From positions 31,396,935 to 31,460,934 of the forward strand of contig NC_081384.1 in NCBI RefSeq assembly GCF_030684315.1: a DNA stretch of 64,000 nucleotides, given 5' to 3'. Both the position numbers and the translations under genes were made by a program. Below, piece after piece: positions 13,244 to 63,611 of this stretch; position 1 is the stretch's first letter, and each line of letters opens with the position of its first letter. The notes beneath the pieces are model-generated. The model had not been told where the DNA came from, ran no database searches, and saw only the letters and a program-made list of their open reading frames with translations. The DNA is from Stegostoma tigrinum. Its lineage: Eukaryota.

Positions 13244-14064
13244 GAGTTTTAAGAAGATTTGTAGCTCAGGTTGAGGTTCTGGATGTGAGTTTGCTCACTG
13301 AGCTGGAAGGTTAGTTTTCAGACGTTTCATCACCATTCTAGGTAACATCATCAGTGAGCCTCCAATGAAGCGCTGGTGTTATGTCCCACTTTCCATTTAT
13401 CTGGTTAGGTTTCCTTGGGTTGGTGGTGTCATTTCCTGCGTTGGTGATGTCATTTCCTGTTCTTTTTCTCAGGGGATGGTAGATTGGCTCCAAATCAATG
13501 TGTTTGTTGATGGAGTTCCGGTTGGAATGCCATGCTTCTAGGAATTCTCGTGCATGTCTCTGTTTGGCTTGTCCTACGATTGATGTGTTGTCCCAATCAA
13601 AGTGGTGTCCTTCCTTATCTGTATGTAAGGATACGAGTGATAGTGGGTCATGTCGTTTTGTGGCTAGTTGATGTTCAAATGAACATCAACTAGCCAGAAA
13701 ACGACATGACCCACTATCACTCGTATCCTTACATACAGATAAGGAAGGACACCACTTTGATTGGGACAACACATCCATCCTAGGACAAGCCAAACAGAGA
13801 CATGCACGAGAATTCCTAGAAGCATGGCATTCCAACCGGAACTCCATCAACAAACACATTGATTTGGAGCCAATCTACCATCCCCTGAGAAAAAGAACAG
13901 GAAATGACATCATCAACGCAGGAAATGACACCACCAACCCAAAGAAACCTAACCAGATAAATAGAAAGCGGGACATAAGACCAGCGCTTCATTGGAGGCT
14001 CACTGATGATGTTACCTAGAATGGTGATGAAACGTCTGAAAACTAACCTTCCAGCTCAGTGAAT
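13244..14064. mobile_element. Inverted pair of Penelope-like 3' ends (second family) in the 3' UTR of IFN copy 2
   Basis: ~13294-13677 is the near reverse complement of ~13680-14062. The right arm encodes a GIY-YIG C-terminus (EHQLARKRHDPLSLVSLHTDKEGHHFDWDN..AREFLEAWH). Flanked by tgcataat at 13236-13243 and 14065-14072. Confidence 0.85.
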
Positions 14065-17100: not shown

Positions 17101-17454
17101 CGTTTTCAACGAGAACCTCTGGCTTAGGCAGTGTAGGGGAAAGGGTCCGCCCTGAGACGAGAAAACAGTCCCAGTTACTTTCAGTCCCACAAAATGAGTT
17201 ACTGGAGTATCACAGAGAGCGAATTGCACAAAAAGAAATTCTATTTCTCCCTGATCTGGCAATTAGCAAAGTAAAATCCCGGTGAGATTCAGATTCTGTT
17301 GTGGGGTCAGCTGAAACTCACCATTTCATTCAGTTTGCTCAGAGTCTCTGCGTTGAGAACTTGTTGTAACTTGCAGCCTCTCACAGCCCAGGCTCAGGCT
17401 CCCGGACACTAAGACCAGCATCACCCAGAGTCTCCAAATTCTCGCCAGAGCCAT
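14196..17454 (-). pseudogene. Type I interferon copy 2, frameshifted: exon 1A 17322-17454, exon 2 17062-17151, exon 3 14403-14643, exon 4 14196-14294
   Basis: Exon 1A is 133 bp (+1 T at ~17371) and exon 3 is 241 bp (+1 A at ~14503). Exon 2 (GGPFPLHCLSQRFSLKTKSLNLAKLSSGLE) and exon 4 (KFSDCSWEIIHAETRARLQQLHSIMAQVSRKN*) are open. The single-base insertions could be sequencing errors. Confidence 0.8.
15325..15535. mobile_element. Short Penelope-terminal fragments (inverted pair) in copy-2 intron 2; further dispersed copies at ~15968-16065, 20605-20790, 26418-26520, 30470-30677 and their duplicates
   Basis: Shared text gaactgcagatgctggagaatc..gagctggatgaacacagcaggccaagcagcatc..gctgacgtttcgggcctagacccttcatcag. 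Confidence 0.75.
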
Positions 17455-25503: not shown

Positions 25504-25594
25504 GCTGCACCGAGATAGCGGCGAAACTCTGACCGGAAGTAACTGATCACGACTGGATCTGCTTCCAACTCCCAAAACAGTCCCTTTTTCACTG

Positions 25595-25721
25595 ATAATG
25601 GGAACTGCAGATGCTGGAGAATCCAAGACAATAAAATGTGAGGCTGGATGAACACAGCAGGCCCAGCAGCGTCTCAGGAGCACAAAAGCTGACGTTTCGG
25701 ACCTAGACCCTTCATCAGAGC
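25595..25721 (-). mobile_element. Short Penelope-terminal fragment in the exon-1A 5' UTR (also copy 6, ~49620-49747)
   Basis: Matches the PLE terminus; absent at the equivalent site of copy 4 (~33815) and copy 2. Confidence 0.85.
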
Positions 25722-27496: not shown

Positions 27497-27628
27497 CATT
27501 TTGTGCAGTTTGCTCAGAGTCTCTGTGTTGAGAACTTGCTGTAACTGCAGCCTCTCACAGCCCCGACTCAGGCTCCCGGACACCAACCCCAGCACCATCC
27601 AAAATCTCCAAACCGTCGCCAGACACAT
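27497..27628 (-). CDS. Distal exon 1B of IFN copy 3
   Basis: 132 bp, MCLATVWRFWMVLGLVSGSLSRGCERLQLQQVLNTETLSKLHKM, GTGAGT donor. Confidence 0.85.
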
Positions 27629-31432: not shown

Positions 31433-34400
31433 TCAATTTCTTCTGTTGACTTGTGCCATTATGAAATGCAACTGTTGTAAACGGGCTCTGGTCTCATCAC
31501 GAATTATTTCCCAGGAACATTCACTAAATTTCTAAAAAGTAAGATATTCAAGTAAGTGCATTTGAAAATGAACAAATTAAATGTTGCCATGATTTACACA
31601 GTTAGTTATCAATTCTCATACCTTGTGTTTGAGAAACTTTTCCAGGTTCCTGAAGTAATGCTGAATGGCAGCATTTCTCTTCAGTTTGTGGTCAGATCCT
31701 GATTTCCTCAGGCAGTCTTGCAACTCTCTGAGCTGTTGATCGAGGATAAGACGAAAATTTTCAACCTTGTCCCAGGCCCAAGTGACTGAACCCAGGTTCA
31801 TGCTGTAGATCTTGTTGATGTGGTGCAGGGTTTGATGGATAATCGCAGTCCTTTCCTGAGTCTGAACAAAACACACAAGGTTAGAAGAGACGACATTATT
31901 TCCGTTCGAGGTAGTAAAATGTGCGGATGGATGAGCACAGCAGGCCCAGCAGCATCTCAGGAGCACAAAAGCTGACGTTTCGGGCCTAGACCCTTCATCA
32001 GAGAGGGGTTGGGGTGTAGGTGCTGGAATAAATTTGAGATGTTGCTGGGCCTGCTGTGTTCATCCAGCCTCACATTTTGTTATCTTGGATTCTCCAGCAT
32101 CCGCAGTTCCCATTATCACTGATACAATTATTTCCGTTCGTTTTGGGCTCATATTTAATTCAATAAACAAACAGCAAATAACAGTTAATTGTTCAAATCA
32201 AATATTATCACATCAATGGAAAATGAACAATGCGAGTCTTTAAATCAATGATTAAGATGCAGGTATAAAGGGTTTATTCAGCAGAGGAATTGGGCATGAC
32301 AAGTTAGAGTTTTCAGCAGCCTCGAATTGTGCTGATAAAAGTGGAATGGAAAAGGTTCCAAACGATGAATATCCAGTTCCTCAGACAACAAGAAACAGGC
32401 TCAATCAAGTCGGAGAACTAACAAGCTAAATAGGGGTAATTGGAATGTGTGCCGATTAATTAGTGTGTAACACAAGAAGGAAGCTAAACATGTTTTTGAG
32501 AAGTATTAATAAAAGAAAAGCTGGCTGGTAAGGGAGCAAAATATATGATCCCTCCTCTGTTAGCAAGGGTATCACTGAAGACTGAAACATTAATTTGAAT
32601 TTACTTGCTTTCGAGAACAAAAGTGTTAAACGTGAGAGTAAAGTGGCAAGTTGATGATAAACTCAGTAGGAAGTAAATAGACAAGGAGAAAGTCATCAAG
32701 AATTAACAGCGAATAGAATGAGAATGCTACTTGCTCTTTTATGAATATATTCTGTGTTTACTTTTGCAAAGTAGAAATTCGTGTAAAATCATGCTCAAAG
32801 GAGCGAGAAAATAATAAACATATCCTGTGTGGTGAAGAATGTTGATGGTTCGGAACTTGGATGTAACGTGGAAAGTGCAGCGATAGCGAGAAAGATCCTG
32901 TGAAGCCTGAAAACAGGGGCCCTTTCGCTTTCAGCCCGAACTTTCGAGAGCAGGATGGGGATTTGTTCAGTGAGAGGGTTGAGTTTTAAGCAGGCAAAGT
33001 GATTCTCAGTGACAGCCCTGTTCAACGTCAGTTGGGGCAGCCGAATGGTAAACGACTAATTCACAAAACAGTGGAGAGTGCTGCAGTGATTTTTGTCAAT
33101 TCACTTCAGCTGAAATGTGACAAAAAAATGGACAGATGTTGACAACGCTAAAACCAAACGAAGGTACCTTGAGAGCAGTACTGACAAAGCATGAACTTGT
33201 TCACAGTGTGCCAGTCTCATGCTTTTACTGAGACGGGTTGCGGCGATTTACACAACGGACGGAAATCATTGCGGTTCAACCTCCAACGATCTGATCGTGT
33301 CGCTAATCTCACACATACATTCTCTAAAGTCTCAGTCTGAATAAAATGACTCACCTCAAAACCGTCGGAAAGTTTCACCAGATCCAAGGGCTTAGTTTTC
33401 AGTGACAGCCTCTGCCTTATGCAATGTCGGGGGAAATGACCTCCCTGAGAGGAGAAAACAGTCCCGATTACAATCAGTCCCACAAAACTGAGATGCTGGA
33501 GAAACACCGAACGGTAATTGCACAAAATGAATATCTATTTCTCCCTCAACCGACATTCAACAGCGAACACACCCACTGAGACCCCGATCAGTTGACACTC
33601 ACCATTTCATGCAGTTTGCGCAAGGTCTCTGTGTTGAGAACTTGCAGCCTCTCACAGCCCAGGCTCAGGCTCCCTGGACCCCAAGACCAGCATCACCCAG
33701 AGTCTCCAAATTCTCGCCAGAGCCATGCTGCACCGAGATAGCGGCGAAACTCTGACCGGAAGAAACTGATCACGACTGGATCTGCTTCCAACTCCCAAAA
33801 CAGTCCCTTTTTCACTGAATGAGAAGCTGTTTCCTTCAGTGTCGAGTCCTTTGCAACAGTCTGAGTATATCTGCATGTCTGACAGATCGAGGTCGGCCTG
33901 AGCTGGGTGCTGTGACCGCCTGAGCGGCCGGTGTATATAGGTGGCACTGGCGAGGTGTGGCCATGACATTCGAAAAGTGAAACCAGCTTCCGGGAGTTTT
34001 CAATGATCAGAGGAGAGCAAGTGTGTGTGCTCCCTGTCTGACGGAAGGAATCTGAAAGCTGGAGATTCCTGAAGGAGCGAGTGGAAAATCTCTGACAGAA
34101 AATAACGAGTGTTCGAGACAAGCTCAAAGATCCGACAATTCCTTCCAAAATCATTTAAAGCATTATTGGAAAACCGAATACTTTCAATTAAAACGGATAT
34201 ACGGGCATTATTGGAGCAATGGGTTAGATTGCTGAATTATATTTCTTCAATCAAAACGACAAACAACATTCAGACGATGCGTAAATTTGAAAAAAAGAAC
34301 TCATCTCTCGCCTCCTCTGCAACCTTTCAAAGACTGAACCACAGCTTTGTCGTTCAAGGTCTCTCTGCTCGACGGACCGATCTGGCTGGGACTGCATTCC

Positions 34401-35712
34401 GTTGCTCCCATTCTAATCAAACTCACTGTAGCCTGAGAATGATCACATCTCTTCACACTCCAACCTGCTCACCCACTCTCACTGTCAGCTGACCCCAATG
34501 ACCTGCACTTAGTCCCTGATAGCAAAGTGTAGAGCAGGCCAACACAGAAGGTTCATCCAGCTCCACACTGTTCAATCTCGGATTCTCAAGCATCTGCAGT
34601 TTCTTTTGAGTCTGCCCCAAGTCCCCCTCTACTTATCTCCGTGCTCATCCCGACTGGACAAAATACAAATTGCAGCCTTAGATTCCCAGCGTGGCGAGGA
34701 CCGAATGCTCTGTCCCTCCGGACATCTCCCTGAAGACTCCAATTGTACTGCATTTTCACTCGGTATATTCATCAGCCACAATCATTTCCGTTAACTGCGC
34801 ATCGAGAGACTGGAGTAAATGTTTTTGTATTCCGAAACAAAAACTGTCTTCCTTGTCGCTCACACCAGCCGGACCAAATTTATCCCCTCTTAATGACAAC
34901 CTTCTGAACCAGACCCAGGCAATGCGCCCCGGGTTTTATATTTGACCCCGAGGTGAACTTATGATGCTTACCTGAATCATCATCGTCCTCCTGTTTGGAG
35001 TAAGCTATATCTCAGACTTCAGCATTGCCCCTTGTTTCAGATTCCGCGAAAACATGCAACTCTACCTTCCCTTCTGCCCTGAATAGGCCAAGGTCACGGC
35101 TCTGTGGCTGCGACGCCATTCGGCCATACTCCCAAACACCTTTGCCCTGCCCTGACATGCACTAGAACACAGCTACCTCCACACCCCATTCCCGTTTTGA
35201 ATGTACACCTCTGTCCCCAGACATAGTGGAACACCTCACTCGTTTCCGTCAAGCTCCCTTCCTCCTCTGTTCAACTCCCGCTGATATACGCCGAGCCGGG
35301 ACCAACAATTCCACGTCAATCAATTTCAGGCATTATTCTGGTGACACCTCCTGGCCATGCTCCCAATGCAGCACACGGGAAATGCACTGCGCCTCTCCTT
35401 CAACAAGATGACCAGCTGTACACACCACACGAGATGTGCTCTGATCGATTCCAGTACAATCGAAAAAACCGCACAACTTCAGTATTGTTATATGTTTTGT
35501 CTTTACGTGTCAACAATTACCGACTCTCGTACTCTAACATACAAACGTTCGGATCTCGATTTGGGGCAGCTGACACTCACCATTTTGTGCAGTTTGCTCA
35601 GAGTCACTGTGTCGAGAACTTGCTGTAACTGCAGCCTCTCACAGCCCAGACTCAGGCTCCCGGACACCAACCCCAGCACCATCCAAAATCTCCAAACCGT
35701 CGCCAGACACAT
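31433..35712 (-). CDS. Type I interferon copy 4: exon 4 31433-31531, exon 3 31622-31861 and exon 2 33355-33444 intact; exon 1A 33603-33726 frameshifted; exon 1B 35581-35712 intact
   Basis: Exon 1A is 124 bp (9-bp deletion and a +1 insertion, giving MALARIWRLWVMLVLGSREPEPGL*). Joining 1B to exons 2-4 gives an open 186-aa IFN; that splice is inferred. Confidence 0.75.
31909..32126. mobile_element. Inverted pair of Penelope-terminal fragments in intron 2 (copies 4-8; absent from copy 3)
   Basis: Flanked by attatttccgttcg at 31895-31908 and 32127-32140; empty site near 23900-23915. Confidence 0.85.
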
Positions 35713-38700
35713 GTTGTACCGAGACAGAAGGTAGCACCGAGGTGGAAGATGAGAAAGCGGTCAGTGTGAAGTCCGAGCGGATTGTGACCCGGGAGCGACC
35801 GCCTGTGCTGCCGAGTGCTGTGAGTGTGAGCCTGGGCTCTGCTGGTTGCTCTCACCGGCACTGCCATGCTGGCGGCTTTAAAGGGGCACATTACATTCCA
35901 AAAGTGAAAACTGCTCCCAGGATTTTTGGAGCGCCTGGAGCAGGAGTGTGTGCTGTTGCTTTCTGTGGTAAGGAATCGAAAAACTGGAGATTCCCGAAGC
36001 TGCGGCTGGAAAATCCCGGGTCGAAAATCGCAACCAGCGCTCGATTTGCAGCTGAATGTTGAGTGTGTTCAGATGATCGGGCACTGAGCTGGTGCAGGGG
36101 GAGGCTCTGTACTTGGCTGGTGGGATTGGGGACTGGGTCGGGATATGTACTTGGGGCTGGATGTCCTAATCCGGATTATAGAGACCCCGTCCGCGGAAAT
36201 CCCCGGTGTCACGGCGCTAGACGCGTTCCCATTTTCCAGGTTGGAGATGACAGGGAGCCCGGGTCACAGGCCTGGCTCACCGGCTGCTGGCGACTGTCTC
36301 CGCTCACATTCACCTGGCCCAGAATCCGCTCCCTCACTGGAGCAAGGTTCCCACTTCCAGCTCGGATTCCGGAAATATTTTCAGGATCTCTATCGAATCA
36401 CCAGGATCTGATCCGACTCTGAAAGTGAACCCTCTCCCTTTCCTTTCATCGCTTCTTTCTGCTCTCTCTCTCCCGGGAAAGTGTCTTTGTCGGTTTCTCT
36501 CTGCAAATGTACCTTTCGTCTGTTTTCTCAAAAGCGAAAGTGCCGCAGGGAAAGTGACGCGTTTTGTCATTTCCGAAAGGGAGAGGAGTTTGGAAACACA
36601 GCGGGTCAGACTGAGAGGGGGCAGACAAGGAACATGTGGGAAAGTATTTGTGATATTCCGGAACATGTTGGTTCAGGGGCAAATGTCTCCAAATCACTTT
36701 TACTTGGAACTACCACCCACTCTGACAGAGCAGGTGAACTATTTAAATGCTTGAAATGTTCATTTTTATAATTAAGTCTTGCTGTTTGTAGCTGGAACAG
36801 AAACTGCTTTTACCCGAAATAGAATTTGGCCGTTGATTTTAAACTGTTGCCAACGAGAATTCGCAGAAGACTGTTCCTCTTTAAATTACAATGATACTTA
36901 GCGCTCAACATTTGCCAATCACAAAATTTCTTTGCAACCGCTTTCCTACACGCATGGAACTGTCCTCATAGCCAAACACTCCAGGGTCGTCGTTGACACA
37001 TTCGCCAAGGCCTGCAAACTTCAGCAAAGCTAATGTCTGCATCCTGAGAAGGACCAGTGTGACATGCGAGACAAAGTCTGCTTCAAAAGGCTACATTTAT
37101 ATAACGCCGTTCATGACCAAAACACTCATCAAATCACCCTGCAAAAATAGACTCTTTTTAAAATGTATTCACTTTAAATGCAACAAATATGTTCTGCGTA
37201 TTGTGTTGCACAACCTCAGAGCATGTGGAATTCAGTAAAACGCAGATAACCTGGTTTTGTGATATTGATTGTGGTTCAGTTAGAGGAATGCCAGACGGAT
37301 CATTGGTGGGGCATAAAGTACTCAGTATTTCTGTTGGTAACTTGTTTGAAGGGGCGCACGACAAGCAAGAAATGCTAGCGCAGTCAGCGACAACGCCTTC
37401 CCAGGACTGAATGACAAAAATCAGAAAACCATCCAGAATGTGGAACGTCAATGGAAAGAGGAAGCTGATGAAAGGTGGGGATGTTTTGTTGTCAATACGC
37501 AGGATATTCGTGCAAACAAATTCCGAGTACTAGTTATATAATGTTTGGGCTCACTACTTAAACAAGATACACAATTATCAGACAAACTTCAGAGTAAATC
37601 CACTCGGTTAATTCTTGGAATATTAATGTTGGCTAATAAGAACAGATTTCGCGTCTGGGCCCACGTAAATTGCAGTTGTGCAGAATGAAATGGTGAAGTT
37701 ATTGAAACAACTAAGGATCTGGGGAGACTTAAGTGAATAAATGTTATGAAGGTATTTCGGCCTTTGTGAATGCGACAATAAGCTCATTGGTTGAATATGA
37801 GCAATCTCCACTTCAGATAGAGGTAAGGACAATTTCCTGGTCGAGGAGTCGATTGTCACTCCGTACGTCCACCCCTGACACCCACCGTGATATTCTTTAA
37901 AATATTCAGGTCTATAGTGAGATTTTTGATCGACAATCAAACCATAACTTTTTGTAGGGACTACAAACCTGAAAAGAACAGGAGGTGCTGATAATCTGAA
38001 ACATAAAACAGGAATTGTTGCAGAAAATCAGTCGTCTGACAGCAACTGTAGCAAGAAAGGAGAACTAACGTTATTATTCCAGTGACCTTCAGGAGCGAAC
38101 GGGAAAAGAAATCACTCTGCTTTCTCTCTGTAGGGTTTCTGCAGAAATGTTTGCTTCTGTCAGAGGTCTTTAGGGTATGAGCTGAAAATATGAGCGAAGG
38201 CCACAATCTGATCAGCTGCAACACAACATTCGAAACACTTGACGTGTTAAGTGTTCACCGTTTTACATGGTTATGCGATCAAATATTTCTTTAAAAAATG
38301 TATTTTTCGCAGCTGGAAGCTGTTATGATTCGTAGTCGCACTCCTCACTCTGATTATTGTTTTAAAAATTAAAGGTATCATTCTTCAACCAGTTTCTGCT
38401 TTTCCTATTTGTACACGGTGGCTGGTATCCTTACAACCATTATTCAAAATTCACATCAACTCTCCCATTCCATTTATCTCTCCGTGCAAACGGCTTTCCC
38501 CTTCACTGCTCGGCAACCAGTCTCATCTAGACATCGCGCAGTTTTTCCGCCGTCTCCGCTTCCCCACCGATAACTCTCCTCTCCACATATCTTCTCCTCT
38601 TTCCATCTTCTCTCCTCCTCCCCTCTCTCCCTATTTACTTCAGATTCCTCTCCCATCCCCCTTTTCTGATGAAGGGTCTAGGCCCGAAACGTCAGCTTTT

Positions 38701-39515
38701 GTGCTCCTACGATGCTGCTTGTCCTACTGTGTTCATCCAGTTCCACACTTTGTTATCACAAACTTTGTCCATTTTTGCTGCTGAACCGGAATACAAAATT
38801 CAAAGAAACAATCGTATCACAGAAAAAAATCAGAGCAGTGGAATTGAAAAAGGGTTGATACGTCTCAGGTGTAAGTGCAAATCTTGAACGAACATTGGAG
38901 ATGACGAGCACGAAGAGTAACAGACTGAAGACAGAAGTATCAGTAGCATTTATACTCAGTGTCAAAAGGTTAAATGAGAGAAGTCAAAAATAGACATCAA
39001 ACTGGTAAATGTGTAATGTTAAACCAAATTTATTTATATCAATGAGTTCGTTTTCAGTATAAAAATTTCCAGCTTAAAAAAAATTTACTTCCCAACGTAC
39101 AAATAAATAACAATAAATTAACATCTTTAAGTTAATTGACATATTACATAAATTTCAATAAATTAAGACGTCTCGTCAATAAATATGAATAAATTAGAGT
39201 AACTGAAATGGGTTTCAAGATTGGCAAATAGGAGTTCACAAGTGACAAGGTCAATGTGGTTCAGAAATCACTGAACTGGAAGTCTGATGTTCCAAAACAG
39301 ACTTCACACTCAGTGAAACTTCAACATTGCATCGGGGGAAAACATCGCAACAATACATGTCAGTGAATTAAAATAAATAGTTCTGGCAACACTCCCGTTG
39401 TTGCTCTTGATGCAAGTGAGAAAAAAAATTCTTGCAAACATATATAAACAGTTTCAATGAAAAAGTCTTTGAAATAAATATTCATTGTTCTGGTCCGCAG
39501 TGAATATGTTTTTTT

Positions 39516-41816
39516 TCAGTTTCTTCTGTTGACTTGTGCCATTATGAAATGCAGCTGTTGTAAACGGGCTCTGGTCTCATCACGAATTATTTCCCAGGAA
39601 CATTCACTGAATTTCTGAAAAGTAAGATATTCAAGTAAGTGCATTTGAAAATGAACAAATTAAATGTTGCCATGATTCACACAGTTAGTTATCAATTCTC
39701 ATACCTCGTGTTTGAGAAACTTTTCCAGGTTCCTGAAGTAATGTTGAATGGCAGCATTTCTCTTCAGTTTGTGGTCAGATCCTGATTTCCTCACGCAGTC
39801 TTGCAACTCTCTGAGCTGTTGATCGAGGAGAAGACGAAAATGTTCAACCTTGTCCCAGGCCCAAGTGACTGAACCCAGGTTCATGCTGTAGATCTTGTTG
39901 ATGTGGTGCAGGGTTTGATGGATAATCGCAGTCCTTTCCTGAGTCTGAACAAAACACACAAGGTTAGAAGAGACGACATTATTTCCGTTCGTGGTAATAA
40001 AACGTGAGGCTGGATGAACACAGCAGGCCGAGCAGCATCTCAGGAGCACAAAAGCCGACGTTTCGGGCCTAGACCCTTCATCAGAGAGGGGTTGGGGTGT
40101 GGGTTCTGGAATAAATTTGAGATGCAGCTGGGCCTGCTGTGTTCATCCAGCCTCACATTTTATTATCTTGGATTCTGCAGCATCCGCAGTTCCCATTATC
40201 ACTGATACAATTATTTCCGTTCGTTTTGGGTTAATATTCAATTCAATAAACAAACAGCAAATAACAGTTAATTGTTCAAATCCAATATTATCACATCAAT
40301 GGAAAATGAGCAATGCGAGTCTTTAAATCAATGATTAAGATGCAGGTATAAAGGGTTTATTCAGCAGAGGAAAAGGGCATGACAAGTTAGAGTTTTCTGC
40401 AGCCTCGAATTGTGCTGATAAAAGTGGAATGGAAAAGGTTCCAAACGATGAATATCCAGTTCCTCAGACAACAAGAAACAGGCTCAATCAAGTCGGAGAA
40501 CTAAACAGCTAAATAGGGGTAATTGGAATGTGTGCCGATTAATTAGTGTGTAACACAAGAAGGAAGCTAAACATGTTTTTGAGAAGTATTAATAAAAGAA
40601 AAGCTGGCTGGTAAGGGAGCAAAATATATGATCCCTTCTCTGTTAGCAAGGGTATCACTGAAGACTGAAACATTAATTTGAATTTACTTGCTTTCGAGAA
40701 CAAAAGTGTGAAACGTGAGAGTGAAGTGGCAAGTTGATGATAAACTCAGCAGGAAGTAACTCGACAAGGAGAAAGTCATCAAGAGTTAACAGCGAATAGA
40801 ATGTGAATGCTACTTGCCCTTTTATGAATATATTCTGAGTTTGCTTTTGCAAAGTAGAAATTCGTGTAAAATCATGCTCAAAGGAGCGAGAAAATAATAA
40901 ACATATCCTGTGTGGTGAAGAATGTTGATGGTTCGGAACTTGGATATAACGTGGAAAGTGCAGCGATAGCGAGAAAGATCCTGTGAAGCCTGAGAACAGG
41001 GGCCCTTTCGCTTCCAGCCCGAACTTTCGAGAGCAGGATGGGGATTTGTTCAGTGAGAGGGTTGAGTTTTAAGCAGGCAAAGTGATTCTCAGTGACAGCC
41101 CTGTTCAACGTCAGTTGGGGCAGCCGAATGGTAAACGACGAATTCACAAAACAGTGGAGAGTGCTGCAGTGATTTTTGTCAATTCACTTCGGCTGAAATG
41201 GGACTAAAAAATGGACAGATGTTGACAACGCTAAAACCAAACGAAGGTACCTTGAGAGCAGTACTGACAAAGCATGAACTTGTTCACAGTGTGCCAGTCT
41301 CATGCTTTTACTGAGACGGGTTGCGGCGATTTACACAACGGATGGAAATCATTGCGGTTCAACCTCCAACGATCTGATCGTGTCGCTAATCTCACACATA
41401 CATTCTCTAAAGTCTCAGTCTGAATAAAATGACTCACCTCAAATCCGTCGGAAAGTTTCACCAGATCCAAGGGCTTAGTTTTCAGTGACAGCCTCTGCCT
41501 TATGCAATGTCGGGGGAAATGACCTCCCTGAGAAGAGGAAACAGTCCCGGTTACATTCAGTCCCACAAACTGAAATGCTGGAGAAACACCGAACGGTAAT
41601 TGCACAAAATGAATATCTATTTCTCCCTCAACCGACATTGAACAGCGAGCAGACCAACTGGGACTCCGATCAGTTGACACTCACCATTTCGTACAGTTTG
41701 CTCAAGGTCTCTGTGTTGAGAACTTGCTGTAACTGCAGCCTCTCACAGCCCAGACTCAGGCTCCCGGACACCAAACCCAGCACCATCCAAAATCTCCAAA
41801 CCGTCGCCAGACACAT
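39516..41816 (-). CDS. Type I interferon copy 5, intact, with a single chimeric exon 1: 41685-41816, 41438-41527, 39705-39944, 39516-39614
   Basis: Exon 1 MCLATVWRFWMVLGLVSGSLSLGCERLQLQQVLNTETLSKLYEM has a B-type 5' part and an A-type 3' end and intron. All exons are open with GT-AG boundaries. Confidence 0.92.
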
Positions 41817-44233
41817 GTTGTACCGAGACAGAAGGTAGCACCGAGGTGGAAGATGAGAAAGCGGTCAGTGTGCAGTCGGAGCGGATTGTGACCCGGGAGC
41901 GACCGCCTGTGCTGCCGAGTGCTGTGAGTGTGAGCCTGGGCTCTGCTGGTTGCTCTCACCGGCACTGCCATGCTGGCGGCTTTAAAGGGGCACATTACAT
42001 TCCAAAAGTGAAAACTGCTCCCAGGATTTTTGGAGGACCTGGAGCAGGAGCGTGTGCTCTTTCTTTCTGAGGTAAGGAATCGAAAAGCTGGAGATTCCCG
42101 AAGCTGCGGCTGGAAAATCCCGGGTCGAAAATCGCAACCAGCGCTCGATTTGCAGCTGAATGTTGAGTGTGTTCAGATGATCGGGCACTGAGCTGGTGCA
42201 GGGGGAGGATCTGTACTTGGCTGGTGGGATTGGGTCTGGGTCGGGATATGTACTTGGGGCTGGATGTCCTAATCCGGATTATAGAGACCCCGTACGCGGA
42301 AATCCCCGGTGTCACGGCGCTAGTCGCGTTCCCATTTTCCAGGTTGGAGATGACAGGGAGCCCGGGTCACAGGCCTGGCTCACCGGCTGCTGGCGACTGT
42401 CTCCGCTCACATTCACCTGGCCCAGAATCCGCTCCCTCACTGGAGCAAGGTTCCCACTTCCAGCTCGGATTCCGGAAATATTTTCAGGATCTCTATCGAA
42501 TCACCAGGATCTGATCCGACTCTGAAAGTGATCCCTCTCCCTTTCCTTTCATCGCTTCTTTCTGCTCTCTCTCTTCCGGGAAAGTGTCCGTGTCGGTTTC
42601 TCTCTGCAAATGTACCTCGTGTCTGTTTTCTCAAAAGCGAAAGTGCCGCAGGGAAAGTGACGCGTTTTGTCATTTCCGAAAGGGAGTGGAGTTTGTCAAC
42701 ACAGCGGGTCTGACTGAGAGGGGGCAGGACAAGGAACATGTGGGAAAGTATTTGTGATATTCCGGAACATGTTGGTTCAGGGGCAAATGTCTCCAAATCA
42801 CTTTTACTTGGAACTACCACCCACTCTGACAGAGCAGGTGAACTATTTAAATGCTTGAAATGTTCACTTTTATAATTAAGTCTTGCTGTTTGTAGCTGGA
42901 ACAGAAACTGTTTTTACCCGAAATAGAATTTGGCCGTTGATTTTAAACTGTTGCCAACGAGAATTCGCACAAGATTGGTCCTCTTTAAATTACAATGATA
43001 CTTAGCGCTCAACATTTGCCAATCACAAAATTTCTTTGCAACCGCTTTCCTACACGCATGGAACTGTCCTCATAGCCAAACACTCCAGGGTCGTCGTTGA
43101 CACATTCGCCAAGGCCTGCAAGCTTCAACAAAGCGAATGTCTGCATCCTGAGCAGGACCAGTGTGACATGCGAGACAAAGTCTGCTTCAAAAGGCTACAT
43201 TTATATAACGCCGTTCATGACCAAAACACTCATCAAATCACCCTGCAAAAATAGACTCTTTTTAAAATGTATTCACTTTAAATGCAACAAATATGTTCTG
43301 CGTATTGTGTTGCACAACCTCAGAGCATGTGGAATTCAGTAAAACGCAGATAACCTGGTTTTGTGATATTGATTGTGGTTCAGTTAGAGGAATGCCAGAC
43401 GGATCATTGGTGGGGCATAAAGTACTCAGTATTTCTGTTGGTAACTTGTTTGAAGGGGCGCACGACAAGCAAGAAATGCTAGCGCAGTCAGCGACAACGC
43501 CTTCCCAGGACTGAATGACAAAAATCAGAAAACCATCCAGAATGTGGAACGTCAATGGAAAGAGGAAGCTGATGAAAGGTGGGGATGTTTTGTTGTCAAT
43601 ACGCAGGATATTCGTGCAAACAAATTCCGAGTACTAGTTATATAATGTTTGGGCTCACTACTTAAACAAGATACACAATTATCAGACAAACTTCAGAGTA
43701 AATCCACTCGGTTAATTCTTGGAATATTAATGTTGGCTAATAAGAACAGATTTCGCGTCTGGGCCCACGTAAATTGCAGTTGTGCAGAATGAAATGGTGA
43801 AGTTATTGAAACAACTAAGGATCTGGGGAGACTTAAGTGAATAAATGTTATGAAGGTATTTCGGCCTTTGTGAATGCGACTAAATGCTCATTGGTTGAAT
43901 ATGAGCAAACTCCACTTCAGATAGAGGTAAGGACAATTTCCTGGTCGAGGAGTCGATTGTCACTCCGTACGTCCACCCCTGACACCCACCGTGATATTCT
44001 TTAAAATATTCAGGTCTATAGTGAGATTTTTGATCGACAATCAAACCATAACTTTTTGTAGGGACTACAAACCTGAAAAGAACAGGAGGTGCTGATAATC
44101 TGAAACATAAAACAGGAATTGTTGCAGAAAATCAGTCGTCTGACAGCAACTGTAGCAAGAAAGGAGAACTAACGTTATTATTCCAGTGACCTTCAGGAGC
44201 GAACGGGAAAAGAAATGACTCTGCTTTCTCTCT

Positions 44234-45834
44234 GAGATAATGGGGACTGCAGATGCTGGAGATTCCAAGATAATAAAATGTGAGGCTGGATGAACACAGC
44301 AGGCCAAGCAGCATCTCAGGAGCACAAAAGCTGACGTTTCGGGCCTGGACCCTTCATCAGAGAGGGGGATGGGGAGAGGGAACTGGAATAAATAAGGAGA
44401 GAGGGGGAGGCGGACCGAAGATGGAGAGTAAAGAAGATAGGTGGAGAGAGTATAGGTGGGGAGGTAGGGAGGGGATAGGTCAGTCCAGGGAAGACGGACA
44501 GGTCAAGGAGGTGGGATGAGGTTAGTAGGTAGATGGGGGTGCGGCTTGGGGTGGGAGGAAGGGATGGGTAAGAGGAAGAACCGGTTAGGGAGGCAGAGAC
44601 AGGTTGGACTGGTTTTGGGATGCAGTGGGTGGGGGGGAAGAGCTGGGCTGGTTGTGTAGTGCAGTGGGGGGAGGGGACAAACTGGGCTGGTTTAGGGATG
44701 AGATAATGGGGACTGCAGATGCTGGAGATTCCAAGATAATAAAATGTGAGGCTGGATGAACACAGCAGGCCAAGCAGCATCTCAGGAGCACAAAAGCTGA
44801 CGTTTCGGGCCTAGACCCTTCATCAGAGAGGGGGATGGGGGGAGGGAACTGGAATAAATAGGGAGAGAGGGGGAGGTGGACCGAAGATGGAGAGTAAAGA
44901 AGATAGGTGGAGAGAGTGTAGGTGGGGAGGTAGGGAGGGGATAGGTCAGTCCAGGGAAGACGGACAGGTCAAGGAGGTGGGATGAGGTTAGAAGGTAGCG
45001 GGGGGTGCGGCTTGGGGTGGGAGGAAGGGATGGGTGAGAGGAAGAACCGGTTAGGGAGGCAGAGACAGGTTGGCCTGGTTTTGGGATGCAGTGGGTGGGG
45101 GGGAAGAGCTGGGCTGGTTGTGTGGTGCAGTGGGGGGAGGGGACGAACTGGGCTAGTTGAGGGATGCAGTAGGGGAAGGGGAGATTTTGAAACTGGTGAA
45201 GTCCACATTGATACCATATGGCTGCAGGGTTCCCAGGCGGAATATGAGTTGCTGTTCCTGCAACTCCACATTGATACCATATGGCTGCAGGATTCCCAGG
45301 CGGAATATGAGTTGCTGTTCCTGCATATTCCGCCTGGGAACCCTGCAGCCATATGGTATCAATGTGGACTTCACCAGTTTCAAAATCTCCCCTTTCCCTA
45401 CTGCATCCCTCAACCAGCCCAGTTCGTCCCCTCCCCCCACTGCACCACACAACCAGCCCAGATCTTCCCCCCCACCCACTGCATCCCAAAACCAGTCCAA
45501 CCTGTCTCTGCCTCCCTAACCGGTTCTTCCTCTCACCCATCCCTTCCTCCCACCCCAAGCCGCACCCCCCGCTACCTACTAACCTCATCCCACCTCCTTG
45601 ACCTGCCCGTCTTCCCTGGACTGACCTATCCCCTCCCTACCTCCCCACCTACACTCTCTCCACCTATCTTCTTTACTCTCCATCTTCGGTCCGCCTCCCC
45701 CTCTCTCCCTATTTATTCCAGTTCCCTCCCCCCATCCCCCTCTCTGATGAAGGGTCTAGGCCCGAAACGTCAGCTTTTGTGCTCCTGAGATGCTGCTTAG
45801 CCTGCTGTGTTCATCCAGCCTCACATTTTATTAT
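44234..45834. mobile_element. Composite Penelope-like insertion: tandem 3' ends plus an inverted copy
   Basis: Units 44234-44700 and 44700-45325, then an inverted arm 45326-45834. 15-bp direct repeat ctctgctttctctct at 44219-44233 and 45835-45849; empty sites at ~30032 and ~38114. Confidence 0.88.
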
Positions 45835-47232
45835 CTCTGCTTTCTCTCTATAGGGTTTCTGCAGAAATGTTTGTTTCTGTCAAAGGTCTTTAGGGTATGA
45901 GCTGAAAATATGAGCGAAGGCCACAATCTGATCAGCTGCAACACAACATTCGAAACACTTGACGTGTTAAGTGTTCACCGTTTTACATGGTTATGCGATC
46001 AAATATTTCTTTAAAAAATGTATCTATCGCAGCTGGAAGCTGTTATGATTCGTAGTCGCACTCCTCACTCTGATTATTGTTTTAAAAATTAAAGGTATCA
46101 TTCTTCAACCAGTTTCTGCTTTTCCTATTTGTACACGGTGGCTGGTATTCTTACAACCATTATTCAAAATTCACATCAACTCTCCCATTCCATTTATCTC
46201 TCCGTGCAAACGGCTTTCCCCTTCACTGCTCGGCAACCAGTCTCATCTGGACATCGCGCAGTTTTTCCGCCGTCTCCGCTTCCCCACCGATAACTCTCCT
46301 CTCCACCTATCTTCTCCTCTTTCCATCTTCTCTCCGCCTCCCCTCTCTCCCTATTAACTTCAGATTCCTCTCCCATCCCCCTTTTCTGATGAAGGGTCTA
46401 GGCCCGAAACGTCAGCTTTTGTGCTCCTAAGATGCTGCTTGTCCTACTGTGTTCATCCAGCTCCACACTTTGTTATCACAAACTTTGTCCATTTTTGCTG
46501 CTGAACCGGAATACAAAATTCAAAGAAACAATCGTATCACAGAAAAAATCAGAGCAGTGGAATTGAAAAAGGGTTGATACGTCTCAGGTGTAAGTGCAAA
46601 TCTTGAACGAACATTGGAGATGACGAGCACGAAGAGTAACAGACTGAAGACAGAAATATCAGTAGCATTTATACTCAGTGTCAAAAGGTTAAATGAGAGA
46701 AGTCAAAAATGGACATCAAACTAGTAAATGTGTAATGTTAAACCGAATTTATTTATATCAATGAGTTCGTTTTCAGTATAAAAATTTCCAGCTTAAAAAA
46801 AATTTACTTCCCAACGTACAAATAAATAACAATAAATTAGCATCTTTAAGTTAATTGACATATTACATAAATTTCAATAAATTAAGACGTCTCGTCAATA
46901 AATATGAATAAATTAGAGTAACTGAGATGGGTTTCAAGATTGGCAAGTCGGAGTTCACAAGTGACAAGGTCAATGTGGTTCAGAAATCACTGAACTGGAA
47001 GTCTGATGTTCCAAAACAGACTTCACACTCAGTGAAACTTCAACATTGCATCGGGAGAAAACATCGCAACAATACATGTCAGTGAATCAAAATAAATAGT
47101 TCTGGCAACACTCCCGTTGTTGCTCTTGATGCAAGTGAGAAAAAAAATTCTTACAAACATATATAAACAGTTTCAATGGAAAGTCTTTGAAATAAATATT
47201 CATTGTTCTGGTCTGCAGTGAGTATGTTTTTT

Positions 47233-49529
47233 TCAGTTTCTTCTGTTGACTTGTGCCATTATGAAATGCAACTGTTGTAAACGGGCTCTGGTCTCAGCAC
47301 GGATTATTTCCCAGGAACATTCACTGAATTTCTGAAAAGTAAGATATTCAAGTAAGTGCATTTGAAAATGAAAAAATTAAATGTTGCCATGATTTACACA
47401 GTTAGTTATCAATTCTCATACCTTGTGTTTGAGAAACTTTTCCAGGTTCCTGAAGTAATGCTGAATGGCAGCATTTCTCTTCAGTTTGTGGTCAGATCCT
47501 GATTTCCTCAGGCAGTCTTGCAACTCTCTGAGCTGTTGATCGAGGAGAAGACGAAAATGTTCAACCTTGTCCCAGGCCCAAGTGACTGAACCCAGGTTCA
47601 TGCTGTAGATCTTGTTGATGTGGTGCAGGGTTTGATGGATAATCGCAGTCCTTTCCTGAATCTGAACAAAACACACAAGGTTAGAAGAGACGACATTATT
47701 TCCGTTCGTGGTAATAAAACGTGCGGCTGGATGAACACAGCAGGCCGAGCAGCATCTCAGGAGCACAAAAGCCGACGTTTCGGGCCTAGACCCTTCATCA
47801 GAGAGGGGTTGGGGTGTGGGTTCTGGAATAAATTTGAGATGCAGCTGGGCCTGCTGTGTTCATCCAGCCTCACATTTTATTATCTTGGATTCTGCAGCAT
47901 CCGCAGTTCCCATTATCACTAATACAATTATTTCCGTTCGTTTTGGGTTAATATTCAATTCAATAAACAAACAGCAAATAACAGTTAATTGTTCAAATCC
48001 AATATTATCACATCAATGGAAAATGAGCAATGCGAGTCTTTAAATCAATGATTAAGATGCAGGTATAAAGGGTTTATTCAGCAGAGGAAAAGGGCATGAC
48101 AAGTTAGAGTTTTCTGCAGCCTCGAATTGTGCTGATAAAAGTGGAATGGAAAAGGTTCCAAACGATGAATATCCAGTTCCTCAGACAACAAGAAACAGGC
48201 TCAATCAAGTCGGAGAACTAACAAGCTAAATAGGGGTAATTGGAATGTGTGCCGATTAATTAGTGTGTAACACAAGAAGGAAGCTAAACATGTTTTTGAG
48301 AAGTATTAATAAAAGAAAAGCTGGCTGGTAAGGGAGCAAAATATATGATCCCTCCTCTGTTAGCAAGGGTATCACTGAAGACTGAAACATTAATTTGAAT
48401 TTACTTGCTTTAGAGAACAACAGTGTGAAACGTGAGTAAAGTGGCAAGTTGATGATAAACTCAGCAGGAAGTAACTCGACAAGGAGAAAGTCATCAAGAG
48501 TTAACAGCGAATAGAATGTGAATGCTACTTGCCCTTTTTTGAATATATTCTGAGTTTGCTTTTGCAAAGTAGAAATTCGTGTAAAATCATGCTCAAAGGA
48601 GCGAGAAAATAATAAACATATCCTGTGTGGTGAAGAATGTTGATGGTTCGGAACTTGGATGTAACGTGGAAAGTGCAGCGATAGCGAGAAAGATCCTGTG
48701 AAGCCTGAGAACAGGGGCCCTTTCGCTTTCAGCCCGAACTTTCGAGAGCAGGATGGGGATTTGTTCAGTGAGAGGGTTGAGTTTTAAGCAGGCAAAGTGA
48801 TTCTCAGTGACAGCCCTGTTCAACGTCAGTTGCGGCAGCCGAATGGTAAACGACTAATTCACAAAACAGTGGAGAGTGCTGCAGTGATTTTTGTCAATTC
48901 ACTTCAGCTGAAATGGGACTAAAATGGACAGATGTTGACAACGCTAAAACCAAACGAAGGTACCTTGAGAGCAGTACTGACAAAGCATGAACTTGTTCAC
49001 AGTGTGCCAGTCTCATGCTTTTACTGAGACGGGTTGCGGCGATTTACACAACGGATGGAAATCATTGCGGTTCAACCTCCAACGATCTGATCGTGTCGCT
49101 AATCTCACACATACATTCTCTAAAGTCTCAGTCTGAATAAAATGACTCACCTCAAATCCGTCGGAAAGTTTCACCAGATCCAAGGGCTTAGTTTTCAGTG
49201 ACAGCCTCTGCCTTATGCAATGTCGGGGGAAATGACCTCCCTGAGAAGAGGAAACAGTCCCGGTTACATTCAGTCCCACAAACTGAAATGCTGGAGAAAC
49301 ACCGAACGGTAATTGCACAAAATGAATATCTATTTCTCCCTCAACCGACATTCAACAGCGAACAGACCAACTGGGACTCCGATCAGTTGACACTCACCAT
49401 TTCGTACAGTTTGCTCAAGGTCTCTGTGTTGAGAACTTGCTGTAACTGCAGCCTCTCACAGCCCAGGCTCAGGCTCCCTGACCCCAAGAGCAGCACCACC
49501 CAGAGTCTCCAAATTCTCGCCAGAGCCAT
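47233..49529 (-). CDS. Type I interferon copy 6, intact: exon 1A 49398-49529, exon 2 49151-49240, exon 3 47422-47661, exon 4 47233-47331
   Basis: Open 186-aa frame MALARIWRLW...KFSECSWEIIRAETRARLQQLHFIMAQVNRRN*, canonical splice sites. Confidence 0.93.
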
Positions 49530-51528
49530 GCTGCACCGAGATAGCGGCGAAACTCTGACCAGAAGAATCCGATCACGACTGGATCTGCTTCCAACTCCCA
49601 AAACAGTCCCTTTTTCACTGATAATGGGAACTGCAGATGCTGGAGAATCCAAGACATTAAAATGTGAGGCTGGATGAACACAGCAGGCCCAGCAGCATCT
49701 CAGGAGCACAAAAGCTGACGTTTCGGACCTAGACCCTTCATCAGAGCAGAAGCGGTTTCCTTCAGTGTCGAGTCCTGTGCGACTGTCTGAGTATATCTGC
49801 ATGTCTGACAGAGCGAAGTCGGCCTGAGCTGGGTGCTGTGACCGCCTGAGCGGCCGGTGTATATAGGAGGCACTGGCGAGGTGTGGCCATGACATTCGAA
49901 AAGTGAAACCAGCTTCCGGGAGTTTTCAATGATCAGAGGAGAGCAAGTGTGTGTGCTCCCTGTCTGACGGAAGGAATCTGAAAGCTGAAGATTCCTGAAG
50001 GAGCGAGTGGAAGATCCCTGACAGAAAATAACAACGAGTGTTCGAGACAAGCTCAAAGATCCGACAATTCCTTCCAAAATCATTTAAAGCATTATTGGAA
50101 AACCGAATACTTTCTCTCAATTAAAACGGATATACGGGCATTATTGGAGCAATGGGTTAGATTGCTGAATTATATTTCTTCAATCAACACGACAAACAAC
50201 ATTCAGACGATGCGTAAATTTGAAAAAAGAACTCATCTCTCGCCTCCTCTGCAACCTTTCAAAGACTGAACCACAGCTTCGTCGTTCAAGGTCTCTCTGC
50301 TCGACGGACCGATCTGGCTGGGACTGCATTCCGTTGCTCCCATTCTGATCAAACTCATTGTAGCCTGAGAATGATCACATCTCTTCACACTCCAAACTGC
50401 TCACACACTCTCACTGTCAGCTGACTCCAACGGAAGCTGCCCTTAGTCCCTGATAACAAAGTGTGGAGCTGGATGAACTCAGCAGGCCAATACAGAAGGT
50501 TCATCCAGCTCTACACTGTTCAATCTCGGATTCTCAAGCATCTGCAGTTTCTTTTGTCTCTGCCCCAAGTCCCCCTGTACTAATCTCCGTGCTCATCCCT
50601 ACTGGACAAAATACAAATTGTAGCCTTAGATTCCAAGCGTTGCGAGGACCGAAAGCTCTGTCCCTCGGGACATCTCCCTGAAGACTCCAATTGTACTGCA
50701 TTTTCACTCGGTATATTCATCAGCCACAATCATTTCCGTTAACTGCGCATCGAGAGACTGGAGTAAATGTTTTTGTTTTACGAAGCAAAAACTGTCTTCC
50801 TTGTCACTCACTCCAGCCAAACCAAATTTCACCCCTCTCAATGACAACCTTCTGAACCAGACCCAGGCAATGCGCCCCGTGTTTTATATTTGACCCCGAG
50901 GTGAACTTATGATGCTTACCTGAATCATCATCGTCCTCCTGTTTGGAGTAAGCTATATCTCAGACTTAAGCATTGCCCCCTGTTTCAGATTCCGCGAAAA
51001 CATGCAACTCTACCTTCCCTTCTGCCCTGTATAGGCCAAGGTCACGGCTCTGTGGCTGCGACGCCATTCGGCCATACTCCCAAACACCTTTGCCCTGCCC
51101 TGACATGCACTAGAACACAGCTACCTCCACACCTCATTCCCGTTTTGAATGTACACCTCTGTCCCCAGACATAGTGGAACACCTCACTCGTTTCCGTCAA
51201 GTTCCCTTCCTCCTCTGTTCAACTCCCGCTGATATGTGCCGAGCCGGGACCAACAATTCCACGTCAATCAATTTCAGGCATTATTCTGGTGACACCTCCT
51301 GGCCATGCTCCCAATGCAGCACACGGGAAATGCACTGCGCCTCTCCTTCAACAAGATGACCAGCTGTACACACCACACGAGATGTGCTCTGATCGATTCC
51401 AGTACAATCGAAAAAACCGCACAACTTCAGTATTGTTATATGTTTTGTCTTTGCGTGTCAACAGTTTCCGACTCTCGTACTCTAACATACAAACGTTCGG
51501 ATCTGTATTTGGGGCAGCTGACACTCAC

Positions 51529-51660
51529 CATTTCGTGCAGTTTGCTCAGAGTCTCTGTGTTGAGAACTTGCTGTAACTGCAGCCTCTCACAGCCCAGACT
51601 CAGGCTCCCGGACACCAAACCCAGCACCATCCAAAATCTCCAAACCGTCGCCAGACACAT
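51529..51660 (-). CDS. Distal exon 1B of IFN copy 6
   Basis: 132 bp, MCLATVWRFWMVLGLVSGSLSLGCERLQLQQVLNTETLSKLHEM, GTGAGT donor. Confidence 0.85.
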
Positions 51661-55464: not shown

Positions 55465-57765
55465 TCAGTTTCTTCTGTTGACTTGTGCCATTATGAAATG
55501 CAGCTGTTGTAAACGGGCTCTGGTCTCATCACGAATTATTTCCCAGGAACATTCACTGAATTTCTGAAAAGTAAGATATTCAAGTAAGTGCATTTGAAAA
55601 TGAACAAATTAAATGTTGCCATGATTCACACAGTTAGTTATCAATTCTCATACCTCGTGTTTGAGAAACTTTTCCAGGTTCCTGAAGTAATGTTGAATGG
55701 CAGCATTTCTCTTCAGTTTGTGGTCAGTTCCTGATTTCCTCACGCAGTCTTGCAACTCTCTGAGCTGTTGATCGAGGAGAAGACGAAAATGTTCAACCTT
55801 GTCCCAGGCCCAAGTGACTGAACCCAGGTTCATGCTGTAGATCTTGTTGATGTGGTGCAGGGTTTGATGGATAATCGCAGTCCTTTCCTGAGTCTGAACA
55901 AAACACACAAGGTTAGAAGAGACGACATTATTTCCGTTCGTGGTAATAAAACGTGAGGCTGGATGAACACAGCAGGCCGAGCAGCATCTCAGGAGCACAA
56001 AAGCCGACATTCCGGGCCTAGACCCTTCATCAGAGAGGGGTTGGGGTGTGGGTTCTGGAATAAATTTGAGATGCAGCTGGGCCTGCTGTGTTCATCCAGC
56101 CTCACATTTTATTATCTTGGATTCTGCAGCATCCGCAGTTCCCATTATCACTGATACAATTATTTCCGTTCGTTTTGGGTTAATATTCAATTCAATAAAC
56201 AAACAGCAAATAACAGTTAATTGTTCAAATCCAATATTATCACATCAATGGAAAATGAGCAATGCGAGTCTTTAAATCAATGATTAAGATGCAGGTATAA
56301 AGGGTTTATTCAGCAGAGGAAAAGGGCATGACAAGTTAGAGTTTTCTGCAGCCTCGAATTGTGCTGATAAAAGTGGAATGGAAAAGGTTCCAAACGATGA
56401 ATATCCAGTTCCTCAGACAACAAGAAACAGGCTCAATCAAGTCGGAGAACTAAACAGCTAAATAGGGGTAATTGGAATGTGTGCCGATTAATTAGTGTGT
56501 AACACAAGAAGGAAGCTAAACATGTTTTTGAGAAGTATTAATAAAAGAAAAGCTGGCTGGTAAGGGAGCAAAATATATGATCCCGTCTCTGTTAGCAAGG
56601 GTATCACTGAAGACTGAAACATTAATTTGAATTTACTTGCTTTAGAGAACAACAGTGTGAAACGTGAGAGTGAAGTGGCAAGTTGATGATAAACTCAGCA
56701 GGAAGTAACTCGACAAGGAGAAAGTCATCAAGAGTTAACAGCGAATAGAATGTGAATGCTACTTGCCCTTTTATGAATATATTCTGAGTTTGCTTTTGCA
56801 AAGTAGAAATTCGTGTAAAATCATGCTCAAAGGAGCGAGAAAATAATAAACATATCCTGTGTGGTGAAGAATGTTGATGGTTCGGAACTTGGATATAACG
56901 TGGAAAGTGCAGCGATAGCGAGAAAGATCCTGTGAAGCCTGAGAACAGGGGCCCTTTCGCTTCCAGCCCGAACTTTCGAGAGCAGGATGGGGATTTGTTC
57001 AGTGAGAGGGTTGAGTTTTAAGCAGGCAAAGTGATTCTCAGTGACAGCCCTGTTCAACGTCAGTTGGGGCAGCCGAATGGTAAACGACGAATTCACAAAA
57101 CAGTGGAGAGTGCTGCAGTGATTTTTGTCAATTCACTTCAGCTGAAATGGGACTAAAAAATGGACAGATGTTGACAACGCTAAAACCAAACGAAGGTACC
57201 TTGAGAGCAGTACTGACAAAGCATGAACTTGTTCACAGTGTGCCAGTCTCATGCTTTTACTGAGACGGGTTGCGGCGATTTACACAACGGATGGAAATCA
57301 TTGCGGTTCAACCTCCAACGATCTGATCGTGTCGCTAATCTCACACATACATTCTCTAAAGTCTCAGTCTGAATAAAATGACTCACCTCAAATCCGTCGG
57401 AAAGTTTCACCAGATCCAAGGGCTTAGTTTTCAGTGACAGCCTCTGCCTTATGCAATGTCGGGGGAAATGACCTCCCTGAGAAGAGGAAACAGTCCCGGT
57501 TACATTCAGTCCCACAAACTGAAATGCTGGAGAAACACCGAACGGTAATTGCACAAAATGAATATCTATTTCTCCCTCAACCGACATTGAACAGCGAGCA
57601 GACCAACTGGGACTCCGATCAGTTGACACTCACCATTTCGTACAGTTTGCTCAAGGTCTCTGTGTTGAGAACTTGCTGTAACTGCAGCCTCTCACAGCCC
57701 AGACTCAGGCTCCCGGACACCAAACCCAGCACCATCCAAAATCTCCAAACCGTCGCCAGACACAT
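55465..57765 (-). CDS. Type I interferon copy 7, intact, chimeric exon 1: 57634-57765, 57387-57476, 55654-55893, 55465-55563
   Basis: Near-identical to copy 5 at offset 15949; SGSDH becomes SGTDH in exon 3. Confidence 0.92.
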
Positions 57766-63182: not shown

Positions 63183-63611
63183 TCAGTTTCTTCTGTTGAC
63201 TTGTGCCATTATGAAATGCAACTGTTGTAAACGGGCTCTGGTCTCAGCACGGATTATTTCCCAGGAACATTCACTGAATTTCTGAAAAGTAAGATATTCA
63301 AGTAAGTGCATTTGAAAATGAAAAAATTAAATGTTGCCATGATTTACACAGTTAGTTATCAATTCTCATACCTTGTGTTTGAGAAACTTTTCCAGGTTCC
63401 TGAAGTAATGCTGAATGGCAGCATTTCTCTTCAGTTTGTGGTCAGATCCTGATTTCCTCAGGCAGTCTTGCAACTCTCTGAGCTGTTGATCGAGGAGAAG
63501 ACGAAAATGTTCAACCTTGTCCCAGGCCCAAGTGACTGAACCCAGGTTCATGCTGTAGATCTTGTTGATGTGGTGCAGGGTTTGATGGATAATCGCAGTC
63601 CTTTCCTGAGT
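63183..63611 (-). CDS. Type I interferon copy 8, partial: exon 3 63372-63611, exon 4 63183-63281 (5' exons beyond the window)
   Basis: Both exons open; near-identical to copy 6 at offset 15950. Confidence 0.88.

Follow-up and report, generated by a model that had tools for sequence, protein, structure and literature searches.

An open distal first exon beside a frameshifted proximal one in a type I interferon gene of Stegostoma tigrinum

The interferon array and the gene of copy 4

The window, by which we mean the whole 64-kb stretch of DNA that was analysed, is a minus-strand tandem array of four-exon type I interferon genes. We number copies 1 to 8 inside the window and copies 9 to 12 in the adjoining 50 kb. 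Exon 3 of copy 4, the gene considered here, matches Stegostoma tigrinum proteins named interferon alpha-like as well as relatives from other sharks. According to excerpts of PMC5332411, cartilaginous-fish type I interferon genes have four exons and three introns, and linkage of type I interferon to the genes for growth hormone and CD79 is described there for elephant shark.

The array has several structural peculiarities. A 15.95-kb tandem repeat (window 37000-52950 versus 52950-64000 and L001) comprises copies 5-6 and 7-8, which differ by about 0.25% over 11 kb; either the duplication is very recent, or two haplotypes have been placed one after the other in the assembly. Both young duplicates carry a GC-richer block of about 1.6 kb with nested inverted and tandem repeats (window 44233-45836 and 60183-61786), and a 768-nt inverted repeat is also found at window 13295-14062. 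At an inversion edge (L001:9489-10000 / L002:1-2700) copy 9 on the minus strand stands head to head with copy 10 on the plus strand. Copy 12 (minus strand, L005:2188-5760) is a more distant interferon whose first intron is long and whose exon 4 contains an early stop; a degraded exon-1 fragment lies beyond it (L005:9062-9119).

Copy 4 has two first exons, a proximal exon 1A and a distal exon 1B, each with its own putative promoter. In the order of transcription its features are:

35713..36645, minus strand, distal promoter module B (motif scan; upstream limit by self-BLAST)
35581..35712, minus strand, exon 1B, 44 codons, predicted signal peptide and start of the mature interferon (open, 132 nt)
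33727..35580, minus strand, stretch separating 1B from 1A, with homology to its counterparts in copies 2 and 10 (local alignment)
33934..34092, minus strand, proximal promoter A, which retains its TATA box and IRF-element-like site (motif scan)
33603..33726, minus strand, exon 1A, frame broken, donor intact (alignment and translation)
33355..33444, minus strand, exon 2, 30 codons, open (phase 0, GT/AG)
31622..31861, minus strand, exon 3, 80 codons, open, with a copy-specific letter at 31747
31433..31531, minus strand, coding part of exon 4 up to the stop, open, with AATAAA at 30951

Exons 1B, 2, 3 and 4 are open, all in phase 0 and bounded by GT/AG splice sites; a preliminary description of this DNA had called exon 1B, exons 2-4 and the splice sites of the latter intact. 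Exons 1A and 1B have the identical donor, are both in phase 0 and measure 132 nt in the open copies; by donor and phase either is compatible with the shared exon 2. Of all candidate acceptors from the 1B donor to exon 2, that of exon 2 itself has the richest pyrimidine tract, and over the same distance there is no AATAAA or ATTAAA on the transcript strand, a purely permissive finding. The private changes of copy 4 in exons 2-4 amount to three silent ones and a conservative one, and they may predate the loss of 1A.

Joined together, exon 1B and exons 2-4 give an open frame of 186 amino acids. The predicted protein scores 88.4 bits with PF00143 (curated cut-off 26.8), and its 20 matches among solved structures are all interferons. 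The mature chain has four cysteines (positions 24, 52, 124 and 159) as in the relatives, and the 1B leader shows a hydrophobic core before Cys24 whose best 9-residue mean of 2.07 falls within the range of the relatives (1.9-2.6). Judged by its sequence, copy 4 encodes an ordinary shark type I interferon.

A route to a full open frame, the lack of which defines a pseudogene, is thus present in copy 4. Contrary to the expectation of the preliminary description, the copy has not been mis-annotated as a pseudogene: the RefSeq protein XP_059494883.1 (P0015, interferon alpha-F-like) equals 1B plus exons 2-4 residue for residue. This entry is a predicted model in which the ground for picking 1B is not visible. 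Models with 1B are also annotated for copies 3, 8, 10 and 11; models with 1A are those of copy 6 and of either copy 8 or copy 9. Since copy 10 is modelled with a 1B that lacks its promoter, the choice of 1B is no proof of its use.

The lesion in the proximal first exon

From the ATG at 33726 to the donor at 33603, exon 1A of copy 4 measures 124 nt as compared to 132 nt in the open copies. Alignment with copies 3, 6 and 8 shows that a base has been added at 33677 and that 9 nt are missing in frame at 33646, and translation runs into a stop at codon 25 (nt 73 of the exon) after 24 codons. The frame is lost through the extra base, the deletion by itself being in frame. Both changes had been noticed before, and the bounds then given are exact, 33603 being the 1A donor and 35712 the start of 1B. 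The junctions of both indels are unique within the window and the 50 kb downstream. Taking all copies together, codons 27-32 of exon 1 have suffered three independent indels (+1, -6 and -9) in one short repeat, which is likely a slippage hotspot.

It could be argued that assembly or polishing introduced the extra base by error, or that we are dealing with a private allele; exon 1A would then work with a three-residue deletion and no rescue would be needed. The extra base indeed doubles a single letter, and the result resembles a blend of two variants which other copies have at this place. However, the youngest duplicates of the array differ by 27 substitutions and only 1 single-base indel over 11 kb, and this bounds a single-base error in a given 132-nt exon near 1%. 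Moreover, compared with copies 3, 6 and 8, copy 4 has three private single-base indels in 5.4 kb. Together with the 9-nt deletion and a lost kB-like site (see below) these mark it as a diverged unit.

The read evidence consists of the assembled contigs of four runs, which are swamped by two repeats and omit minor paralogs. In runs X1 and X2 no contig has the copy 4 letters of 1A at 33687/33693, but these letters are common to copies 2 and 10, which are likewise missing, and so is the copy 4 letter at 31747 in exon 3. Near 1A, letters found only in copy 4 seem to be present at 33570 (X1 and X2) and at 33887 (X2), where there is depth not assigned to the letter of the other copies; this weakly hints that the copy 4 unit exists in those runs. 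Judged from the rarity of such indels between the youngest duplicates, the extra base is probably real, and we regard an error or a private allele as improbable.

First exons and promoters across the cluster

Upstream of exon 1B a motif scan with consensus sequences finds three kB-like sites 492, 305 and 283 nt before the ATG, one IRF-element-like site at 198 nt and a weak TATA-like box at 170 nt. The support for these motifs is modest, as 17 of 500 shuffled sequences reach three kB-like sites and 26 of 500 reach the IRF-type site. Copy 4 retains all kB-like and IRF-like sites of promoter B. At 13 nt past the TATA-like box there is an ATG, out of frame but in strong context, which would act as a competing start if transcription began further upstream; a 17-nt deletion leaves copies 2 and 11 without it.

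In promoter A the kB-like site is altered at 34091 in copy 4 only (1 of 10 aligned places). Weaker candidate acceptors are found upstream of the intact 1A donor, and inclusion of 1A through them would break the frame of copy 4. Copies 3, 6 and 8 have a SINE-like fragment of about 123 nt between the TATA box and the 1A start codon (window 25585-25720). The corresponding gap in the 5′ region of copy 4 was considered as decay and rejected: copies 2 and 9 share the shorter spacing, and the 123 nt are therefore treated as an insertion in copies 3, 6 and 8.

Exon 1B of copy 4 has two private changes, N34D and E36V, both of which alter the protein. The replaced Asn is present in 55 of the 56 matched shark interferons (60 were collected, of which 4 gave no pattern match). 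Among 17-18 aligned exon-1 places the underlying letters at 35606 and 35613 are each seen once, as is the exon 3 letter at 31747 among 12 aligned places, so that the tags proposed earlier for 1B and exon 3 are unique to copy 4 among the aligned copies. Exon 1B of copy 3 (window 27497-27628) has Leu22 changed to Arg near the predicted cleavage site; the 1A of this copy is open.

All 17 genome matches to exon 1B fall inside the interferon cluster, and no retrocopy containing exon 1 was found. The interval between 1B and 1A is about 68-71% identical in copies 4 and 2 (E 1e-51 and 3e-109), and copies 4 and 10 align here in the same range. We used local alignments here, as global identities over the 400 nt past the 1B donor (about 70% between lineages) are near noise. 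This homology across lineages indicates that the tandem of 1B and 1A is older than the split of these lineages. No remnant of exons 2-4 was found by tblastn with five proteins in four such intervals (best E 0.37).

The B module itself is remarkably uniform. Exon 1B is 94.7-100% identical across 10 copies, and the 900 nt before it are 95.5-100% identical in 9 of the 10, yet the bodies which follow are only 73-85% alike, with a sharp edge of identity at the 1B donor. For exon 3 the identity to copy 4 is 84-85% in copies 2 and 10 and 73% in copy 11. From a uniform module before diverged bodies we infer gene conversion.

The two first exons have fared differently. The 1B-type exons are open in all 10 copies, whereas 1A is frameshifted in three of the seven copies which have it (copies 2, 4 and 10, by two events) and is absent from copy 11. 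Both first exons are open in copies 3, 6 and 8; copy 9 has 1A only and copy 11 has 1B only. The 1A of copy 1 was left unscored because this copy is partly unreadable and broken in exons 3 and 4. Three further first exons need to be listed:

41685..41816, minus strand, single hybrid exon 1 of copy 5 under promoter B, 1B-type to nt 63 and 1A-type from nt 111
57634..57765, minus strand, hybrid exon 1 of copy 7, like that of copy 5 (alignment)
17322..17454, minus strand, exon 1A of copy 2, frameshifted by another +1 that copy 10 also has (alignment)

Copies 5 and 7 thus have promoter B only, with the crossover between nt 63 and 111, and their genes are open. Copy 2 is broken in exon 3 as well. Copies 2 and 10 are 97-98% identical over the dead 1A inside an interval of 79% identity; here, too, conversion is visible, and it has carried a dead 1A. 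In copy 10 only 165 nt of promoter B are left before 1B, and the donor is weakened. We had considered copy 10 as evidence of long selection on 1B alone, but dropped it, because the dead 1A of this copy appears to stem from recent conversion and promoter B is truncated. The 1B of copy 10 lost its promoter at the inversion edge, and promoter elements of copy 9 lie 680-870 nt from it.

Copy 4 is not the only gene left with 1B alone; the same holds for copy 11, which lies outside the window (plus strand, L002:9643-9768 and L003:3497-4745). Copy 11 has no exon 1A, its exons are open and its sole leader is a 1B 4 kb upstream. It keeps a relic of the proximal promoter, whose distance to exon 2 is 265 nt, shorter by about 240 nt than in copy 4 (495 nt) or copy 2 (511 nt). 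Right in front of exon 2 there are two ATGs in frame, from which the relic promoter could produce a leaderless form, and the acceptor of exon 3 is an unusual GAG. In a tree of 17 bodies picked from 60 proteins, the body of copy 11 groups with open whale-shark and bamboo-shark proteins (support 100/99).

At positions 5 and 9, the only two sites compared, the whale-shark ortholog of copy 11, seen as a protein and not in the genome, has 1B-type residues, and a whale-shark relative of the copy 4 body has 1A-type residues at the same two sites. In the epaulette shark Hemiscyllium ocellatum the N-terminus of a 349-aa model (P0020) matches translated promoter B, followed by part of an exon-1 copy in another frame and then by a full exon 1. 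Read from the model, this suggests tandem first exons in Hemiscyllium ocellatum too, but it could also be a merge of two genes.

Use of the distal exon and its meaning

With the frame of 1A broken, exon 1B is the only route from copy 4 to a secreted interferon, in agreement with the preliminary description. We suggest, with a probability of roughly 0.55, that copy 4 still makes secreted interferon through promoter B, with 1B spliced directly to exon 2; as a leader, 1B is likely functional, as far as can be read from the DNA.

The scenario would be as follows. The tandem may have arisen once and long ago, either by duplication of a promoter with its first exon or by loss of the body of a neighbouring gene, and gene conversion would keep the B module uniform. 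Promoter B, whose kB- and IRF-type sites predict inducibility by virus, would start the transcript. Exon 1B would then be joined to exon 2 over a 2.1-kb intron containing the dead 1A, which would be skipped as is the case with alternative first exons. The product would be a secreted interferon of 186 residues. A working 1B would relax the selection on 1A, which has been lost by three routes in the cluster.

A working 1B is plausible since copy 11, with open orthologs in two other shark genera, depends on it, and since copies 5 and 7 are open with a hybrid exon under promoter B alone. It counts against a rescue, however, that the 1A donor of copy 4 is intact, whereas in copies 5 and 7 there is no 1A to compete with and in copy 11 no rival donor. 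Conversion from copies 5, 7 or 11 could also keep the 1B of copy 4 open without any use.

Exon 1B might then be the leftover start of another interferon gene, kept intact by conversion and unproductive past 1A, and copy 4 would be a young pseudogene. The homogenised B module with its sharp edge at the donor, before old paralogs, would fit this explanation, as would the transfer of a dead 1A between copies 2 and 10, the orphaned 1B of copy 10 and the fact that both private changes in the 1B of copy 4 alter amino acids. Excerpts of PMC6640115 also report rapid birth and death of IFN1 genes. On the other hand, this explanation has to account for the reliance of copy 11, which has open orthologs in two other genera, on the distal exon, for the retention of all promoter B sites in copy 4 and for the missing remnant of exons 2-4 behind 1B. 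We consider an inert 1B less likely than a rescue, but by no means negligible.

A further explanation is that promoter A still fires and that translation resumes at the final codon of 1A; the interferon made would be truncated, leaderless and intracellular, like the product of some teleost transcripts. This codon, 47 nt past the early stop, is an ATG with a strong context that shares the frame of exon 2, and leaderless interferons of trout are active according to excerpts of PMC3828176. Yet the first cysteine would be missing from the product, as would mature residues 1 to 20, all of which are retained in the trout forms (PMC3828176, excerpts); alignment to solved interferons suggests a structural role for the lost stretch. 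In addition, the ATG is present in every copy and is nothing special to copy 4. We regard such a restart as highly improbable.

Among the joints listed in the read contigs of four runs there is none between 1B and exon 2 for any copy. The contigs of run X18 give zero cover on 1A or 1B. Record 9 of this run (window 31488-31730), the one contig that looks spliced, contains 109 nt of exon 3 and apparently 44 nt of exon 4, the latter judged from the length and from the letters at 31497 and 31502. The letters of this contig fit copy 6 or 8, both with an open 1A, and the interferon cluster is likely transcribed in the X18 sample. Run X9, from another organism, has contigs on both promoter types and no bridging contig among those listed. 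Copy 4 can serve as the natural test proposed earlier, as its tags are unique: three private letters mark the expected transcript and make the test cheap.

The arrangement can be compared with known loci. In the UGT1A and clustered protocadherin loci many variable exons share one constant region, and the shared exons can survive the death of one first exon. Each shark gene instead has two near-equivalent leaders.

With the cartilaginous-fish interferons in the excerpts of PMC5332411 and PMC6640115 the genes share the four exons, PF00143, the four cysteines and the tandem turnover, but a second promoter-plus-leader exon is not described in these excerpts. Teleost IFNa/IFNphi1 genes (zebrafish, salmon, trout) give alternative 5′ transcripts (excerpts of PMC5127012, PMC5332411 and PMC3828176), and two transcription starts per interferon gene are also predicted here. 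According to the same excerpts, however, the upstream start of teleosts gives a transcript without signal peptide, the hallmark of their intracellular interferon, whereas the shark 1B is a full duplicate of coding exon 1 and encodes a full leader of its own. IGF1 comes close, with two promoters, alternative first exons on shared exons and different signal peptides (PMC7582825, excerpts). Its leaders are proven by transcripts and belong to a single gene, whereas the shark leaders are candidates which look like recent duplicates moved among paralogs. The literature listings searched, which lack most subscription journals, contain no paper that describes twin leader exons in shark interferons.

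The single frameshift in copy 4 is modest in itself, and a relay of leaders across the whole cluster is the better story. We tentatively propose, as something possible rather than probable, that carpet-shark interferons carry two interchangeable promoter-plus-leader modules, of which the far one is spread by conversion across ancient paralogs and steps in once the near one is dead. The copies could then be read as stages of this relay: both modules alive (copies 3, 6 and 8), the near one just broken (copy 4), the near one gone (copy 11) and the two fused (copies 5 and 7).

If 1B is unused, the cluster displays the ordinary birth and death of an immune array, and the 5′ ends of several RefSeq models in it are wrong. 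If 1B is used, two secreted forms from two promoters would be a form of regulation which we did not find in the literature searched; a duplicated first exon would buffer against gene loss, and conversion could impose one promoter on old paralogs. Should the relay hold true, one and the same body could be secreted under two induction programmes, one kB-rich and the other of the TATA/IRF type, and interferon lineages 27% apart could be switched on together.
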